In this document: positions 31,806 through 39,122 of the stretch, piece after piece
Layout of the letters: each line of letters starts with the position of its first letter
Position numbering within the stretch: the first letter of the stretch is position 1
Source of the DNA: Escherichia coli
GTDB lineage: Bacteria > Pseudomonadota > Gammaproteobacteria > Enterobacterales > Enterobacteriaceae
Assembly: GCF_009931435.1 (NCBI RefSeq)
Contig: NZ_CP043414.1
Reading direction: 5' to 3' (one strand)
Length of the DNA: 64,000 nt
The notes under the pieces: model-generated
What the model was told of the DNA's origin: nothing
Database searches by the model: none
What the model saw: the letters and a program-made list of their open reading frames with translations, nothing else
Program-made: the position numbers and the translations under genes

Positions 31806-34604
31806 ATGAGACGGATTGATGTTATTTGCAAGGAGCTGGAGCGACTGACGTATGGGCTGGAACTGTCTGATTTAGCGAAGGAGAAAGCATTTACTGCTGA
31901 GGCGATTGGTTTTAACCTTGGGCTGGCACGTAACTCGGTTAGTAAAGATCTTAATCAATTATGGAATGAAGGCCTGGTGGTAAAAAGTCAGGGACGTCCT
32001 GTTTTTTTTCTACATCGTCACGCACTAGAATTGCTCATTAATCGAAAACTGGATGATTGCGAATGCATAGTTCATTCAGTGGCTAGTTTATTGCCAAAGA
32101 AAGAAAAATATACAGATGATGATCCGTTTTCCGGACTTATCGGATACGACCGTAGTCTCCGTGATGCGGTAGAAAAAGGCCGCGCAGCGGTGCTCTATCC
32201 CCACGGACTGCATGTGCTGTTAACCGGGGCATCTGGTGTTGGCAAAACATTCTTTGCTGAGTTAATGCATTGCTTCGCTTGTAAGCACACCATAGGTTCG
32301 CCACCTCCGTTGGTTTACTTTAACTGTGCCGAATATGCTCATAATCCGGAGTTGCTTTCCTCTCATCTGTTTGGTCACCATAAGGGGGCATTTACCGGGG
32401 CAAGCGAGAATAAAACGGGGCTGGTGGAGCAAGCTGACGGAGGTTATTTACTTCTGGATGAAGTGCATCGCCTCCCGTATGAAGGACAAGAGAAGCTCTT
32501 TTCTATTCTCGATAAAGGTGAATACCGCCCGCTTGGTTCAAGTGGGCCAACATATTCAATTTCGGTGCGCCTTATTTGCGCCACCACAGAGTTGGTCAAC
32601 TCCTCACTATTGCGTACCTTCCAGCGGCGTATCCAGGTGTATATCGACTTACCGGGTATTCGCCAGCGTTCGGTCGAGGAGCAACTCGAATTGATTGTCA
32701 GCTTCTTCCAGCGCGAAAGTCGTAAAATTGAACGTACCATAAGCCTTGATAAAACCCTTTTGCACTGGTTGTTAAGTAAACCCCTGGAAGGCAATATCGG
32801 CCAGCTTAAAAGCGATATTCAGTTCTTGTGCGCGCAGGCGTGGGCGTCGGGAATGACCGAGCGCAATGATACACTAGAGTTAGATAAACGACTGGCGGAG
32901 ATGCCGTTTAATACCACGCCGGAGCAGCGCCTGCTGGTCGATGCGTTGTTTGGCGGTAAAGATCGTTTGAACGTGGATGCGCGTACGTTGCCCGCGTTAA
33001 AAAATTCGTTGGCGACCAGCGCGGAAATAGAAGAGAGCGATCTGTTTTACAGTTTCCTGACTCGTGAATATGTCAATCTGCGCAACAGTAACGTGCCGCC
33101 CGCAGAAACGCTGGCTATCCTGAAAAACAAACTCAGTTCGATTTTTGAATACGGTCTCTATAGCCGCCATAGTACGGCGCATCCACCGCGCTATGGCGAT
33201 CAAATTGAGGAGCGGGTGACGTTGCTGATCGGTTACGTGGAGCAGGTATTAGGATTTACGTTGCCAGAAAACCTGGCGAACCCGTTACGTAAACACTTTC
33301 TTGCGCTGATTGGCTATGTGCGGCGAGGGCTTATACCTCAACTCTATTCCTCCAGCTTGATTCTGGATCGCTGTAAAGATGAGTATGACAATGCCACGCT
33401 TCTGTGCCGCAAAATCAATGAGCTGCTGCATATTCAGTGCCCGGCGATGGAGGTGGTCTGGCTGTGCCTGTTCCTGAAAGAGTGTCGCCACTACCGCCAG
33501 CGCATCGACACCAGCCCGGATTGCGGCGTGATTCTAATCGCTCACGGTGCGACCACCGCAACGAGCCAGGCGCAATATGTGAATCGGGTGCTGGAGCGCG
33601 ATCTGTTCTACGCAATTGATATGCCATTTGAGCAGTCGGTGCATGACACCCTGGAAACCCTGACCCGGATGATTCAGGACCGGTGCTGGCAGCGGCTGAT
33701 ACTGATGGTGGATATCGGATCGCTGGTTCATTTTGGCAGCACCATCAGCAAGCTGTTCCAGATTGACGTTCTGTTGTTGCCAAATATCACTCTGACCAGC
33801 CTGCTGGAGGTGGGGCTGGATTTAAGCTACGAAACTGGGGATCTATCGCAATTGGCTGTGCTTATGCAGAGTAAAAATATCCCTTGTCGGCTCTGCACGC
33901 CGCAGCAAGAGAGCGGTGGCAAAGTGCTGGTTATCTCATGTATAACCGGAATGGGGACGGCAGAAAAGATCAAAAAAGTGCTGGAGGAGAGCTTTGGCGA
34001 GCTGATGTCGCAGGACACGCGTATGGTGATTCTCGACTATAACGAGGTGCGCAGCCTGGAGCGTATTCAGCAGGCGCTTAATGCCAGTGAACGGCTGGCA
34101 GGGATCGTCGGCACCTTCCAGCCGGGACTGCCGGATATTCCGTTTATCTCGCTGGAGGAACTGTTTTCCGAGCAAGGGCCGGAGCTGGTGCTTAGCCTGC
34201 TGACTCCGGATCTCTCAAGCAGCGAGCGCCGACTGGAGATGGAGCGCAGCGCCATGCGCTTTATCAGCGCGCTGACCATGGAGAGCATCATCAACCATAT
34301 TTCGGTGCTCAACCCGCAGCGAATTCTGAAAGAGATCGAGGACGTTCTGAACCACTTAACCAACACGCTCTCCCTGAAACCGAGCCGCCAGGTGACACTA
34401 CGTTTTCTGATCCATTGCTGCTGCATGGTCGAGCGTATCGTGATTAACCGCAAACCGTTACAGATGGCGCTGGAAAACCGGCTTGATCTGGACGCTCGTG
34501 CCTTTAGCGTCATCAAATCCTCCTTTTTGCCGATTGAAGAGGCTTACGCTATCCGTTTATCGGACGCAGAATATTTTTATATCTACGAACTGCTCTACAG
34601 CTGA
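31806..34604 (+). CDS. Sigma-54-dependent LevR-type transcriptional activator with PTS regulation domains (DgaR-like)
   Basis: Start chosen at MRRIDVICKELERL (ORF extends 14 codons further upstream); Walker A GASGVGKT; GAFTGA motif (HHKGAFTGASENKTG); about 930 aa, a size that accommodates PRD/EII-like regulatory domains. Confidence 0.8.
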   Translation: MRRIDVICKELERLTYGLELSDLAKEKAFTAEAIGFNLGLARNSVSKDLNQLWNEGLVVKSQGRPVFFLHRHALELLINRKLDDCECIVHSVASLLPKKEKYTDDDPFSGLIGYDRSLRDAVEKGRAAVLYPHGLHVLLTGASGVGKTFFAELMHCFACKHTIGSPPPLVYFNCAEYAHNPELLSSHLFGHHKGAFTGASENKTGLVEQADGGYLLLDEVHRLPYEGQEKLFSILDKGEYRPLGSSGPTYSISVRLICATTELVNSSLLRTFQRRIQVYIDLPGIRQRSVEEQLELIVSFFQRESRKIERTISLDKTLLHWLLSKPLEGNIGQLKSDIQFLCAQAWASGMTERNDTLELDKRLAEMPFNTTPEQRLLVDALFGGKDRLNVDARTLPALKNSLATSAEIEESDLFYSFLTREYVNLRNSNVPPAETLAILKNKLSSIFEYGLYSRHSTAHPPRYGDQIEERVTLLIGYVEQVLGFTLPENLANPLRKHFLALIGYVRRGLIPQLYSSSLILDRCKDEYDNATLLCRKINELLHIQCPAMEVVWLCLFLKECRHYRQRIDTSPDCGVILIAHGATTATSQAQYVNRVLERDLFYAIDMPFEQSVHDTLETLTRMIQDRCWQRLILMVDIGSLVHFGSTISKLFQIDVLLLPNITLTSLLEVGLDLSYETGDLSQLAVLMQSKNIPCRLCTPQQESGGKVLVISCITGMGTAEKIKKVLEESFGELMSQDTRMVILDYNEVRSLERIQQALNASERLAGIVGTFQPGLPDIPFISLEELFSEQGPELVLSLLTPDLSSSERRLEMERSAMRFISALTMESIINHISVLNPQRILKEIEDVLNHLTNTLSLKPSRQVTLRFLIHCCCMVERIVINRKPLQMALENRLDLDARAFSVIKSSFLPIEEAYAIRLSDAEYFYIYELLYS

Positions 34605-34668
34605 TCCCCTGATTTACGGGGCTTAAGGCCTCATCCAATCTCTTTTCCTCTGAGCGTGACACAAATTC

Positions 34669-34683
34669 TGGCACGTCCTTTGC
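34669..34683 (+). promoter_or_regulatory. Sigma-54 (RpoN) -24/-12 promoter for the PTS operon
   Basis: TGGCAC-GTCCT-TTGC matches the TGGCAC-N5-TTGC consensus exactly, about 40 nt upstream of the EIIA start and just downstream of the activator gene. Confidence 0.7.
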
Positions 34684-34722
34684 TCCTGACGAAATGTAAA
34701 CACTGGAGCAAAGGAGGCTATT

Positions 34723-35151
34723 TTGACCACAACTGTATCTATTCATCCGTTACCTGAAATTTTGCTGCTAACTCACGGCGGCTGGGGGCTGCAGCTCTGC
34801 AACAGTCTGCGCATGGTGATGGGCGAAATCGAAGGCGTGACGGAAATCGCGCTGATGCCTGTCGATACGCTGGGCGAGTTTTACCAGCGCGTCGAAGCCG
34901 TGGTGAAAACCATGCCAGAAGGTTCGCTTATCGTGACCGATTTTATCGGCGGCACCACCTCTAACGTGGCGGCGCGGCTGAGCGCCGATTATCCGGTGGC
35001 GGTGATCTCCGGGCTTAATGCCTCGCTGCTGCTGGAGGCGCTGGACAAGCGCGAACATGGCCCACTGACCGCCTGCGTGGCCGATCTGGTGGAAGCTGGG
35101 CGCAACAGTTGCCTGGACGTCGTCTCCCATATTCGTCAATTACAACAGTAA
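34723..35151 (+). CDS. PTS mannose-family EIIA component (DgaA-like)
   Basis: 142 aa; TTG start 5 nt after AAGGAGG; EIIA-Man-like N-terminal region (LLLTHGGWG) with candidate phosphorylatable His. Confidence 0.75.
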   Translation: MTTTVSIHPLPEILLLTHGGWGLQLCNSLRMVMGEIEGVTEIALMPVDTLGEFYQRVEAVVKTMPEGSLIVTDFIGGTTSNVAARLSADYPVAVISGLNASLLLEALDKREHGPLTACVADLVEAGRNSCLDVVSHIRQLQQ

Positions 35152-35161
35152 GGAAAATCGT

Positions 35162-35647
35162 ATGGCAAACATCGTGTTATGTCGCATTGACAGCCGTCTT
35201 ATCCACGGACAGGTGGTGACGAAGTGGGTGGGGCAATCCCAGGCCAACCGTATTGCGGTGGTCAGCGACGAGCTGGATGCCGATCCGTTTATGAAAAATA
35301 TCTACCTGATGGCCGCGCCGCCGAATATCAAAGTGGACTGCTTCAGCAACCAGAGCTTCGCGGCCGCGTGGAAAGACAACCAGCTGGGCGACGGCAACGT
35401 GCTGGTGCTGTTCCCGTCGCTGGCGGCGATTCAGGAAGCGGTGCAGCAGGGCTTTGACGTGGCTGATATTCAGGTTGGCGGCTTAGGCGGCGGGCCAAAC
35501 CGTAAAGCGGTGTTCCAGAACATAACTCTGGATGAAAAAGACGTTGGCATTCTTAACGATTTGAAAAGTCGCGGCATTAAGGCTGTTTTCCAGACCATCC
35601 CGGAAGATAAGCCGCAGTCGCTGGACGATATCCTGAAAAAATTCTGA
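35162..35647 (+). CDS. PTS mannose/sorbose-family EIIB component (DgaB-like)
   Basis: 161 aa; MANIVLCRIDSRLIHGQVVTKW is the EIIB-Man N-terminal signature including the phospho-His. Confidence 0.8.
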   Translation: MANIVLCRIDSRLIHGQVVTKWVGQSQANRIAVVSDELDADPFMKNIYLMAAPPNIKVDCFSNQSFAAAWKDNQLGDGNVLVLFPSLAAIQEAVQQGFDVADIQVGGLGGGPNRKAVFQNITLDEKDVGILNDLKSRGIKAVFQTIPEDKPQSLDDILKKF

Positions 35648-35672
35648 CCCTCTGAACATGGGATAACAAATT

Positions 35673-36422
35673 ATGGATACCTTACTTTTTGCAAGCCTGA
35701 TGGGGCTGTATTACTGGTTTGCCCGGTTGCGCCTTGGCTATACCTTCTCCGCCATGCTGTTACAGCCAGTGGTGGTGGCGGTCTTTGTCGGCCTGCTGCT
35801 CGGCAACATGCCTGCGGCGATGATTATCGGCGCGGGGATGCAGTTGGTATATCTGGGTGTGACCTCAACGCCAGGCGGCAATGTGCCGTCAGACCCGGCG
35901 CTGGCGGCCTGTATCGCCATTCCTATCGCCGTTAAGGCCAATATGGACCCGAACCTGGCGATTGCACTGGCGATTCCATTTGGCGTTATCGGCGTATTCC
36001 TCGACCAGTTGCGTCGCACGCTAAATGCGGCCTGGGTGCATATGGCCGATAAACACGCGGAAACGGCCAATATGTCAGCCATTATGCGCTGCGCCTTTCT
36101 CTACCCGGCGCTGCTGGGGCTGGTGCTACGTTTCCCAGTGGTGTTCGCCGCCAACTACTTCGGCCAGAACGTAGTGGAAAGTTTCCTCAAGCTGATGCCG
36201 CACTGGCTGACCCACTCGTTTGAAATCATGGGCGGGATTCTCCCGGCGCTGGGCTTCGCCATCACCATTATGGTGATTGGTAAAAAGAGCCTACTGCCGT
36301 GGTTTATCGGCGGATTCTTCGCGGTGCTGTACCTCAAGGTGGACATCATGGCGATGGCGATTTTCGGCACCTGCGTGGCCTTCCTGATTAAAGGCCTGGC
36401 GAAAAATGAAGGAGCGGCATAA
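35673..36422 (+). CDS. PTS mannose-family EIIC component (DgaC-like)
   Basis: 249 aa polytopic membrane protein in EIIB-EIIC-EIID order. Confidence 0.8.
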   Translation: MDTLLFASLMGLYYWFARLRLGYTFSAMLLQPVVVAVFVGLLLGNMPAAMIIGAGMQLVYLGVTSTPGGNVPSDPALAACIAIPIAVKANMDPNLAIALAIPFGVIGVFLDQLRRTLNAAWVHMADKHAETANMSAIMRCAFLYPALLGLVLRFPVVFAANYFGQNVVESFLKLMPHWLTHSFEIMGGILPALGFAITIMVIGKKSLLPWFIGGFFAVLYLKVDIMAMAIFGTCVAFLIKGLAKNEGAA

Positions 36423-37279
36423 TGAGCGGCGGCGTAATGCAGCATGAACTGGTGGAGCGCGCGCGGGAGTCCGGGGCGCTGACCAAAGCGGATATCACCA
36501 AAGCGTGGTTTATCTACTGGCTTGGCGCGGAAGTTTCCAGCTCCTATGAGCGTTTACAGAGCCTGATTTTCTGCGCCTCGATGACGCCGATTATTAAAAA
36601 GCTCTATCCGCAAAAGGAGGAGCAGGTGGAGGCGTTAAAACGCCATCTGAACTTCTTCAACTCAGAGCAGACGTTTGGCGCGGTGATCCAGGGGATCTCC
36701 ATCGCCATGGAAGAGCAAAAGACCCGCGGCGAGGCGATTAACGATGCCTCTATCACCGGGATTAAAACCGGCCTGATGGGGCCGCTGGCCGGAATGGGCG
36801 ACTCCATCATCTGGGCGGCCGTGATGCCGCTGTTGATTGCTATTTTTATCCCGTTCGCCGCCAATGGCAGCGCAATGGGCGGTATTTTGCCGCTGATTCT
36901 CTACCCGGCGATTACGCTGGCAATCAGCTACGGCATGGTGCACAAGGGCTATACGCTAGGGCGCGATTCGATTATCAGCCTGCTGCAGGGGGGGCGCATC
37001 AAGGAGCTTATCTACGGCGCTAACGTACTGGGGCTTATCATGATGGGTGCGCTATCCGCGAGCTTTGTCAAGATAACCTCACCTTTAAAAATTAGCGCAC
37101 TGAAAGGCTCTGAAGTGGTGGTACAGCAGATTCTTGACTCCATCGCGCCCGGCCTACTGCCGCTGGCGGCAGTGTTCGCGATCTACTTCTATCAGGTGAA
37201 AAAGGGACCGCGTTACACCACGATTTTGCTGTCAATTGTGGCGTTGAGCGTGGTCTGCTCGCTGCTGGGAGTGCTGTAA
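36422..37279 (+). CDS. PTS mannose-family EIID component (DgaD-like)
   Basis: 285 aa; start shares one nt with the EIIC stop; soluble N-terminal part then membrane helices, typical of EIID-Man. Confidence 0.8.
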   Translation: MSGGVMQHELVERARESGALTKADITKAWFIYWLGAEVSSSYERLQSLIFCASMTPIIKKLYPQKEEQVEALKRHLNFFNSEQTFGAVIQGISIAMEEQKTRGEAINDASITGIKTGLMGPLAGMGDSIIWAAVMPLLIAIFIPFAANGSAMGGILPLILYPAITLAISYGMVHKGYTLGRDSIISLLQGGRIKELIYGANVLGLIMMGALSASFVKITSPLKISALKGSEVVVQQILDSIAPGLLPLAAVFAIYFYQVKKGPRYTTILLSIVALSVVCSLLGVL

Positions 37280-37282
37280 GCC

Positions 37283-38392
37283 ATGACGCAGAATATCTAT
37301 CAACAACTGGGGCTGAAACAAGTGATTAACGCTTGCGGTAAGATGACGATTCTCGGCGTCTCCAGTGTCGCGCCGGAGGTGATGCAGGCCACCGCGCGTG
37401 CGGCATCCTCTTTCGTGGAGATTGATCAGCTGGTGGACAAAACCGGCGAGCTGGTCTCTCGCTTTACCGGGGCGGAGGATAGCTACGTTACCTCCTGCGC
37501 CTCGGCAGGGATCGCCATCGCTATCGCCGCCGCCATTACCCGCGGCGACAAGGCCCGGGTGGCGCTCATGCCGGATAGCTCCGGCATGGCCAATGAAGTG
37601 GTGATGCTGCGCGGCCATAACGTCGATTACGGCGCATCGATCCTCAGCGCGATCCGCTTAGGCGGCGGGCGCGTGGTGGAGGTGGGGTCAAGTAACCTGG
37701 CGGCTCTCTGGCAGCTGGAGAGTGCCATTACCGACGCGACCGCCGCGCTGCTGTATGTGAAGTCGCATCACTGCGTGCAGAAGGGGATGTTGAACATCGA
37801 GGACTTCGCCCAAGTCGCGCAGATGCACAACCTGCCGTTGATTGTCGATGCCGCCGCCGAAGAGGATTTACGTGCCTGGGTGGTGAGCGGAGCGGATATG
37901 GTGGTCTACAGCGGCGCAAAAGCCTTTAACGCGCCTACCTCCGGGTTTATCACTGGTAAAAAAATCTGGATTGCAGCCTGTAAAGCGCAGCATTACGGCA
38001 TTGCCAGGGCGATGAAAATCGGCAAGGAGAACATGGTTGGGCTGGTTTACGCGCTGGAGAATTATCACCAGGGGCAGGCAATCATCACCGCGGAACAGCT
38101 CCAGCCAGTGGTTGAAGCGATTTCTGCGATTCACGGGTTAACGGCTGATATTGAGCAGGATGAAGCCGGGCGTGCAATCTGGCGTATTCGTATTCGGGTA
38201 AATGCGCAAGAATTTGGAGTTGCCGCTCGCGTCGTCGAAGCGCAACTGCGTGGTGGCGATATCGCGATTTATACACGGCGGTATAACCTCCACCAGGGCG
38301 TTTTTAGCCTTGATCCGCGTACGGTGGCGGATGGGGAGATGGCGCTTATCGTGGCGCGACTGAAGGAGATTGCAGATCATGCAAAAGATTAA
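37283..38392 (+). CDS. SelA-like PLP-dependent enzyme, putative sugar-acid-6-phosphate ammonia-lyase (DgaE-like)
   Basis: 369 aa; Gly/Ala-rich fold-type I PLP-like core (SCASAGIAIAIAAAI, SGAKAF with candidate PLP lysine); follows the PTS genes. Confidence 0.65.
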   Translation: MTQNIYQQLGLKQVINACGKMTILGVSSVAPEVMQATARAASSFVEIDQLVDKTGELVSRFTGAEDSYVTSCASAGIAIAIAAAITRGDKARVALMPDSSGMANEVVMLRGHNVDYGASILSAIRLGGGRVVEVGSSNLAALWQLESAITDATAALLYVKSHHCVQKGMLNIEDFAQVAQMHNLPLIVDAAAEEDLRAWVVSGADMVVYSGAKAFNAPTSGFITGKKIWIAACKAQHYGIARAMKIGKENMVGLVYALENYHQGQAIITAEQLQPVVEAISAIHGLTADIEQDEAGRAIWRIRIRVNAQEFGVAARVVEAQLRGGDIAIYTRRYNLHQGVFSLDPRTVADGEMALIVARLKEIADHAKD

Positions 38393-39122
38393 TTTCTATC
38401 ATAATCGTGTGGCAATTAATGTGCTGGCGAAAGATATCGCCAATGCCCGTGAAATCTATGACGCCGCCGAAGGCCACGCGGTGATTGGCGTGCTTTCCGC
38501 GCAGTTCTCCTCGGTGGATGAGGGGATCCAGGAAGTTAAACGTTGGATGGCGGAAATACCGTCCATTTCAGTAGGTCTGGGGGCGGGTGACCCGGCGCAG
38601 TATTACAAAGCTGCGATGATTGCGGCGCAGATTCATCCAGCACACGTTAACCAGACCTTTACCGGTTGTGGTTTCGCGGCAGGCGCGCTTGCGACGACGG
38701 GCGGTGAGCAGACCCATGTCAACGCGCTGGTTAGCCCGACGGGAACGCCGGGCGAAGTGCTGATTTCCACTGGCGTTAGCAGCAGCCAGGGTACGCCTGC
38801 CCGCGTATCCTGCGATACGGCAGTGCGAATGATGCTAGATATGGGCGCACACGCGGCGAAGTTCTTTCCGATGGGCGGCGAGAAGTCGCTTCCGGAGCTA
38901 TACGCGCTGGCGACCACGGCGGCGCGCAATGGTATGACGCTGATTGAGCCAACCGGCGGGATTGATTTGGATAACTTCAGTGTGATTCTAAAAACTTGTC
39001 TGGAGGCGGGTGTGCCGCGCATTATGCCGCATGTTTACAGCTCGATTATAGACCCTGATACGGGATATACCCGACCGGATGATGTAGCCGTTTTGCTGAA
39101 TAAAGTGAAATCACTACTCTGA
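38379..39122 (+). CDS. Putative KDGP/KDPG-type aldolase (DgaF-like), family assignment tentative
   Basis: About 247 aa from ATG at 38379 (the track ORF starts 9 nt earlier at a TTG); overlaps the end of the preceding gene; last gene of the operon. Confidence 0.55.
   Translation: MQKINFYHNRVAINVLAKDIANAREIYDAAEGHAVIGVLSAQFSSVDEGIQEVKRWMAEIPSISVGLGAGDPAQYYKAAMIAAQIHPAHVNQTFTGCGFAAGALATTGGEQTHVNALVSPTGTPGEVLISTGVSSSQGTPARVSCDTAVRMMLDMGAHAAKFFPMGGEKSLPELYALATTAARNGMTLIEPTGGIDLDNFSVILKTCLEAGVPRIMPHVYSSIIDPDTGYTRPDDVAVLLNKVKSLL

Follow-up and report, generated by a model that had tools for sequence, protein, structure and literature searches.

A UUG codon behind a strong Shine-Dalgarno sequence as the start of dgaA, the EIIA gene of the D-glucosaminate PTS operon in Escherichia coli

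The closest described relative of the locus considered here is the D-glucosaminate PTS operon of Salmonella enterica, dgaABCDEF/dgaR (STM3772-3766, STM3773), which was reportedly characterized by Miller et al. in 2013. Transcription of the Salmonella dgaABCDEF genes is sigma-54-dependent, activated by DgaR and induced by D-glucosaminate (PMC3844500; PMC4987338); transport of D-glucosaminate, growth on it and induction by it are known only for Salmonella, and the EII phosphorylates DgaR, thereby inhibiting it (PMC4987338). The initiation codon of the first gene, our subject, also has its precedents. In E. coli cyaA, whose UUG start is conserved across Enterobacterales, expression from UUG, GUG and AUG stands in the ratio 1:2:6, and phylogenetically conserved non-AUG starts are already documented as such (PMC5499595, Table 1 and section 23). 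Genome-wide, genes beginning with UUG are enriched for strong, conserved Shine-Dalgarno (SD) sequences (Belinky, Rogozin & Koonin 2017, PMC5622118).

In the window, by which we mean the whole 64-kb stretch of E. coli DNA analysed, the PGAP annotation reads speB, dagR (dgaR), six genes, loiP and tkt, in that order; the sequence agrees at 100% with the chromosome of E. coli 2020CK-00188. The locus is recognizable as a dga operon by its DgaE ammonia-lyase, its DgaF/DagF KDPG aldolase and DgaR/DagR, set beside four Man-family PTS genes. DagR scores 1515 bits against a cut-off of 1400 in the NCBIfam equivalog NF047795 and carries the Pfam domains Sigma54_activat and PRD; the NCBIfam dga-operon models NF047797 and NF047796 give 687.7 against a cut-off of 600 and 352 against 300. 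The operon is accessory in E. coli, being found in 562 of 5,426 complete genomes as an insertion that separates speB from loiP (31806-39122 in the window), and the dgaR-dgaABCDEF copy of the window strain is about 98.7% identical to other E. coli copies. The features to which we refer are these:

31806-34604, + strand: dgaR (dagR), a LevR-like sigma-54 enhancer-binding activator of 932-946 aa; PGAP start, with a longer open reading frame from GTG 31764
34669-34684, + strand: sigma-54 promoter, -24/-12 elements TGGCACGTCCTTTGCT (TGGCACGTCCTTTGC at 34669-34683)
34687-34689, + strand: TGA, the closest in-frame stop upstream of the TTG, which bounds the possible N-terminus
34695-34722, + strand: predicted 5' UTR of about 28 nt
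34711-34717, + strand: SD sequence AAGGAGG, whose duplex with the 16S 3' end has an energy of -11.6 kcal/mol
34718-34722, + strand: 5-nt spacer CTATT, from direct reading; among orthologues the U at -1 is nearly invariant and -2 is variable
34723-34725, + strand: TTG initiation codon of dgaA (PGAP start; orthologues; E. coli copies)
34723-35151, + strand: dgaA coding sequence, 142 aa plus stop, EIIA-Man family (Pfam PF03610; PDB homologues 3lfh and 1pdo)
34726-34758, + strand: variable N-terminal tail, residues 2-12 (TTTVSIHPLPE), preceding beta-strand 1
34762-34764, + strand: internal in-frame TTG, codon 14 (Leu14), rejected as a start
34774-34776, + strand: His18 codon in the LTHGGWG motif, predicted phosphorylation site, invariant in 28 orthologues
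34813-34815, + strand: internal ATG, Met31, invariant; the start in some older or automatic annotations, rejected here
35162-39122, + strand: dgaB, dgaC, dgaD, dgaE and dgaF (NCBIfam, Pfam, PGAP), all beginning with ATG in the most plausible reading

Direct reading upheld the preliminary description in placing AAGGAGG five nucleotides ahead of a TTG that opens the EIIA gene, an arrangement on which PGAP and the orthologues agree, and in finding no upstream ATG in frame: between the TGA at 34687-34689 and TTG 34723 there is no in-frame ATG, GTG or TTG. RefSeq/PGAP begins the dgaA coding sequence at TTG 34723 for the source genome and for a second strain alike, and all 562 E. coli copies agree at 100% identity over 34703-34736, a segment that takes in the SD and spacer, the TTG, and the coding sequence as far as codon four. 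The 5-nt spacer falls within the 4-9 nt that separate the SD from an AUG, GUG or UUG in SD-led initiation. AAGGAGG is no rarity by itself, occurring 5 times in the window against 4.45 expected, so that its meaning rests on its position before the sole viable start and on its conservation in orthologues. Translation from TTG 34723 would be expected to yield the N-terminal peptide (M)TTTVSIHPLPEILLLTHGGWGLQLCNSLR; in the literature, Miller et al. 2013 excluded, we found, for any organism, no dgaA N-terminus determined by experiment, no signal from ribosome profiling and no transcription start that had been mapped. The dgaA gene of the window strain is the only one of the 562 E. coli copies to differ within 34696-34745, apparently having Ser6 for Pro6 in the tail.

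The protein itself sets a limit on where translation can begin. Orthologues of dgaA carry the name D-glucosaminate-specific PTS IIA, and DgaA matches PF03610 over residues 13-121 with 47.7 bits (gathering score 21.4); in the narrower NCBIfam model TIGR00824 it scores 58.7, under the cut-off of 98.35, which makes it a divergent subfamily. T17-H18-G19 is invariant in 28 orthologues and falls on the THG of 3lfh and 5im4 in the alignment; the role of His18 as phospho-acceptor we take to be that known from the IIA-Man family. Once the THG motifs are superposed, solved IIA-Man chains align from DgaA residue 13 onward (their residues 4-8), so DgaA must start upstream of residue 13; relative to these chains it has about 9 extra residues ahead of strand 1. 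Among orthologues, residues 13-25 (ILLLTHGGWG..L) vary hardly or not at all, and variation in codons 13-30 is 3-periodic and of coding type, with minor-allele fractions of 0.08 at first, 0.03 at second and 0.28 at third codon positions.

These observations bear directly on whether the true start could lie elsewhere, at the ATG of Met31 (34813), at TTG 34762 or at ATT 34720. Met31 is invariant across orthologues and is the first residue of existing database entries (P0058, P0103 and others, 108-115 aa), and ATT immediately precedes the TTG in many taxa. A start at Met31 would, however, delete the invariant ILLLTHGGWG strand together with the phospho-His; codons 13-30, upstream of it, evolve as coding; and it has no SD, the pairing energy being +0.9 kcal/mol here and at best -3.3 among the orthologues scored. 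TTG 34762 likewise lacks an SD (+0.4 kcal/mol), and its codon is CTG or TTA in most orthologues, CTG being the usual one. As for ATT 34720 in the role of a non-canonical start, it stands only 2 nt from the SD, and the codon at -1 is not conserved, reading ATT, ACT, CGT, CAT, AAT, AAA or TAC according to taxon. The chance that any of these three is the true start we consider close to negligible. The preliminary description had presented TTG 34723 as the only start that keeps the EIIA N terminus; it is indeed the only viable one, but TTG 34762 also lies upstream of the active-site His. It had also named a conserved downstream ATG in orthologues as evidence that would tell against the TTG; such an ATG does exist in the literal sense, as Met31, but with no SD and with coding codons upstream it is clearly internal.

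Public sets contain mis-called DgaA proteins (P0058, P0103, P0046, P0024, P0040), one E. coli entry having an internal deletion. P0058 and P0103 are truncated, beginning at Met31 and so lacking the phospho-His, and P0024 and P0040 are over-extended, with the TTG read as Leu ("...QEAILTT"). The analysis shows both the short (Met31) and the over-extended versions to be errors.

For comparison of the start site among orthologues, 80 loci were taken from species-representative genomes, together with one Salmonella-labelled contig; each was anchored on THGGWG and read back in frame to a stop, and SD pairing was scored for every candidate start. The 37 Enterobacterales loci have 36 TTG, one GTG and no ATG; the three betaproteobacterial loci all have ATG (0 TTG, 0 GTG); and in Firmicutes and others there are 30 ATG, 4 GTG and 3 TTG. 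In 35 of the 37 Enterobacterales a single candidate start has strong SD pairing (about -10 to -12 kcal/mol), namely a TTG some 5 nt after AGGAGG; of the remaining two loci, one has GTG at the same place and the other, from Erwinia aphidicola, has a TTG whose SD is weak. Represented are Escherichia, Citrobacter, Klebsiella, Enterobacter, Cedecea, Yokenella, Trabulsiella, Superficieibacter, Pantoea, Erwinia, Hafnia, Serratia, Rahnella and Enterobacillus. The SD-linked in-frame TTG seen in the window is present in 36 of 37 Enterobacterales loci, once with a weak SD, and the orthologous loci bear it out as the start. Two assemblies, L033 ('Chryseobacterium sp. 18061') and L034 ('Citrobacter sp. 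18056'), have dga leaders nearly identical to that of Rahnella L035; wrong labels or contamination probably account for this.

Counted from the start, the Thr of THGG lies 10, 13, 15, 16 or 18 codons away, which makes five classes, and conservation of the tail sequence is poor; despite these differences in the tail, the SD-linked start is in frame in every orthologue, which matches the prediction of translation from the SD-linked codon. The AGGAGG core, with 0-2 parsimony changes per base among orthologues, is clearly constrained and better conserved than its flanks. The base immediately before the start (34722) is U in 27 of 28 Enterobacterales orthologues, the exceptions being A (L027) and C (L083), whereas position -2 has undergone 9 parsimony changes. 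This retention of U(-1) seems consistent with the role reported for -1 in fMet-tRNA pairing.

Within the operon, the SD of dgaA is the strongest, at -11.6 kcal/mol against -6.1 for dgaB, -4.0 for dgaC, -8.4 for dgaD, -6.8 for dgaE and -8.8 for dgaF. Two of the other starts call for comment in their own right. PGAP begins dgaD (IID) at ATA 36419, although a normal ATG, served by the good SD GAAGGAG, follows one codon downstream (36422); the choice of ATA has the look of an annotation artefact. For dgaF there are two candidates, TTG 38370 and ATG 38379 (window 38370-38381), both overlapping the end of dgaE; PGAP takes the ATG, whose SD is the better (-8.8 against -4.8 kcal/mol for the TTG).

That EIIA is the first gene of an inducible operon, as proposed earlier, agrees with the sigma-54 box at 34669-34683 and with the published induction by DgaR and D-glucosaminate (PMC4987338). 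TGGCAC-N5-TTGC has this one match in the 64 kb, against 0.31 expected; the box matches the Salmonella dgaA ChIP-chip site TGGCACAACCTTTGCTCT (PMC3844500) and is present upstream of most orthologues. From the -12 element and the usual sigma-54 geometry we infer a transcription start near 34695. No sigma-70-like promoter, intrinsic terminator or Rfam family was found in the dgaR-dgaA spacer. At several Citrobacter, Enterobacter and Superficieibacter loci a REP-like palindrome, ctgataagcgaagcgccatcaggc, is inserted between about 60 and 25 nt ahead of the dgaA start codon (L008, L010, L015, L020, L026), at the place where others have the sigma-54 box; SD and TTG are unchanged in these loci.

RNA of the initiation region (34695-34790) folds with -14.3 kcal/mol, compared with -20.8 ± 3.1 for dinucleotide shuffles (z = +2.1), and all but one of the 200 shuffles reach a fold at least this stable; such weak folding implies that the ribosome-binding site is open. 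A structured or riboswitch-like leader that masks the SD can be dismissed, the region being less structured than shuffles and having no Rfam match. Judged by eye, a CsrA-type GGA hairpin over the SD (GCC-AGGA-GGC in Citrobacter-type loci) is not favoured either: the window does not preserve its flanks (GCAAAGGAGGCT), and GGA is part of every AGGAGG.

The explanation in which we have considerable confidence is that TTG 34723 is the true start of dgaA, used in ordinary SD-led initiation, and that its UUG was inherited and compensated rather than built as a brake. The 3' end of 16S rRNA would pair with AAGGAGG and so set the UUG, 5 nt downstream, in the P site, where fMet-tRNA would read it as one of the three start codons accepted by IF3; proteins initiated at UUG do have Met at the N-terminus (Hecht et al., preprint). 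The UUG was inherited within the enterobacterial dga lineage, AUG being used by the betaproteobacterial and most Firmicutes orthologues, and the near-perfect, conserved SD and unstructured initiation region would offset the UUG. Most likely, then, the UUG is a tolerated or compensated sub-optimal codon and not a purpose-built brake. The position, SD and conservation of the start and the coding nature of the codons after it are shown directly; how efficiently it is really translated, and that it plays no part in regulation, we infer.

The main alternative is that UUG is actively kept, as in cyaA, to cap or tune DgaA output, whether for EIIA:EIIB:IIC:IID stoichiometry or for the ratio that governs EII-to-DgaR feedback. 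It draws on the presence of TTG in 36 of 37 Enterobacterales despite a four-fold-site divergence of 0.3-0.7, on the cyaA precedent of 1:2:6 for UUG:GUG:AUG (PMC5499595), and on the phosphorylation and inhibition of DgaR by EII (PMC4987338), through which EII dosage could matter. A naive parsimony test appears to favour it as well. On a 28-taxon tree, with all substitution types counted and with four-fold sites at invariant residues (n=31) for reference, these sites averaged 8 changes, against a single change at base 1 of the start codon; only 1 of the 31 had one change or fewer, giving p ~0.03. This test is unfair, because T-to-C destroys the start and only transversions (to A or G) are visible. 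The rerun recoded bases as purine or pyrimidine and drew on 129 four-fold sites of dgaA, dgaB and dgaC: these neutral sites averaged 4.1 transversion changes, and 20% of them (18% among those with a pyrimidine majority) had one or fewer, an empirical p of ~0.2. For UUG starts as a class, Belinky et al. (PMC5622118) give a switching rate of 0.0316, about half that of four-fold sites (0.0658), and compared with this generic UUG-start rate the retention of TTG in dgaA has a Poisson p of ~0.4.

The codon is conserved among Enterobacterales in the phylogenetic sense applied to cyaA (36 TTG and 1 GTG in 37 loci), but with transversions alone and 129 four-fold sites its conservation does not significantly exceed neutral expectation (p ~0.2), and the naive signal of selection disappears. 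Enterobacterial dga operons have kept the TTG of their common ancestor, in a manner that, on these data, is indistinguishable from ordinary slow turnover. Its near-total retention (36/37), with that of U(-1), is also compatible with selection, that is, with some constraint keeping UUG, given the 28 taxa.

Sigma-54 promoters are transcriptionally silent without an activator, which open-complex formation requires. Little basal dgaA mRNA would hence be present to dampen, and established knowledge of such promoters makes basal dampening unnecessary. The suggestion of the preliminary description, that a non-ATG start dampens basal translation, found no support and met some evidence to the contrary, in the strongest SD of the operon and the open initiation region (z = +2.1); it is weakened further by the retention of TTG, its turnover being not significantly slower than that of synonymous transversions (p ~0.2). 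The idea of tuning meets the same difficulties, since SD and open initiation region point to initiation that is maximised, not limited. In addition, AUG drives the same operon in other clades, and mRNA with UUG equalled that with AUG in vitro at 20-40 °C when the initiation region was optimised (PMC5499595). With the start-preserving comparisons at p ~0.2 and ~0.4, we hold active tuning by UUG to be unlikely.

A different role for the codon would be to make DgaA translation depend on conditions (ppGpp, nutrient limitation or the level of IF3), over and above control by DgaR and sigma-54. In vitro, mRNAs with non-AUG starts lost activity with extracts of nutrient-limited cells and with ppGpp, but UUG was the least affected of the non-AUG codons (PMC5499595); in favour of such a role, the conserved U(-1) might also be enlisted, at a position that PMC5622118 reports as co-evolving with the start codon and as stabilising the pairing of fMet-tRNA. 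The sequence bears no sign specific to such a mechanism, and the dgaA leader has no conserved structure or RNA family. We judge this condition-dependence highly improbable. The broader proposition that UUG and U(-1) have been selected throughout Enterobacterales as a translational gate, setting the ratio of EIIA to EIIB/C/D and DgaR or conferring sensitivity to ppGpp/IF3, is speculative, and we regard it as decidedly unlikely; were it true, the phosphorylation feedback from PTS to DgaR would be correct only with the UUG codon.

We return to inherited, SD-led initiation at TTG 34723. The start is real, ordinary and already annotated in RefSeq, and the chief value of the analysis is for annotation quality, in that the RefSeq start of dgaA is confirmed through orthologues. 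What it adds is that UUG is common to essentially all enterobacterial dga operons, which provides another example of a conserved non-AUG start behind a perfect SD.

The E. coli locus resembles the Salmonella dga operon in gene order and gene families, its DagR, DgaE and DagF equivalogs scoring above the NCBIfam cut-offs, and in having a sigma-54 -24/-12 box at the equivalent place; the Salmonella-labelled orthologue L083 has the same AGGAGG, 5 nt and TTG. It differs in that the E. coli copy is accessory and in the sequence of the N-terminal tail. The IIA-Man domain of E. coli ManX (1PDO) and other IIA-Man structures belong to the fold family of DgaA and, as it does, end beta-strand 1 with the THG phospho-histidine motif; DgaA differs in standing alone as an EIIA with no IIB fusion, in its longer tail before strand 1 and in its UUG start. 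With E. coli cyaA, dgaA has in common a UUG start conserved across Enterobacterales (PMC5499595), but the limiting effect was measured for cyaA, whereas the context of dgaA, with its perfect SD and open RNA, does not look weak. The pattern of UUG or GUG starts with strong, conserved SDs (PMC5622118) is fitted exactly by dgaA, with its UUG, its strong, conserved AGGAGG and its conserved -1 position; dgaA is one instance of that pattern, followed here over a wider phylogenetic range.
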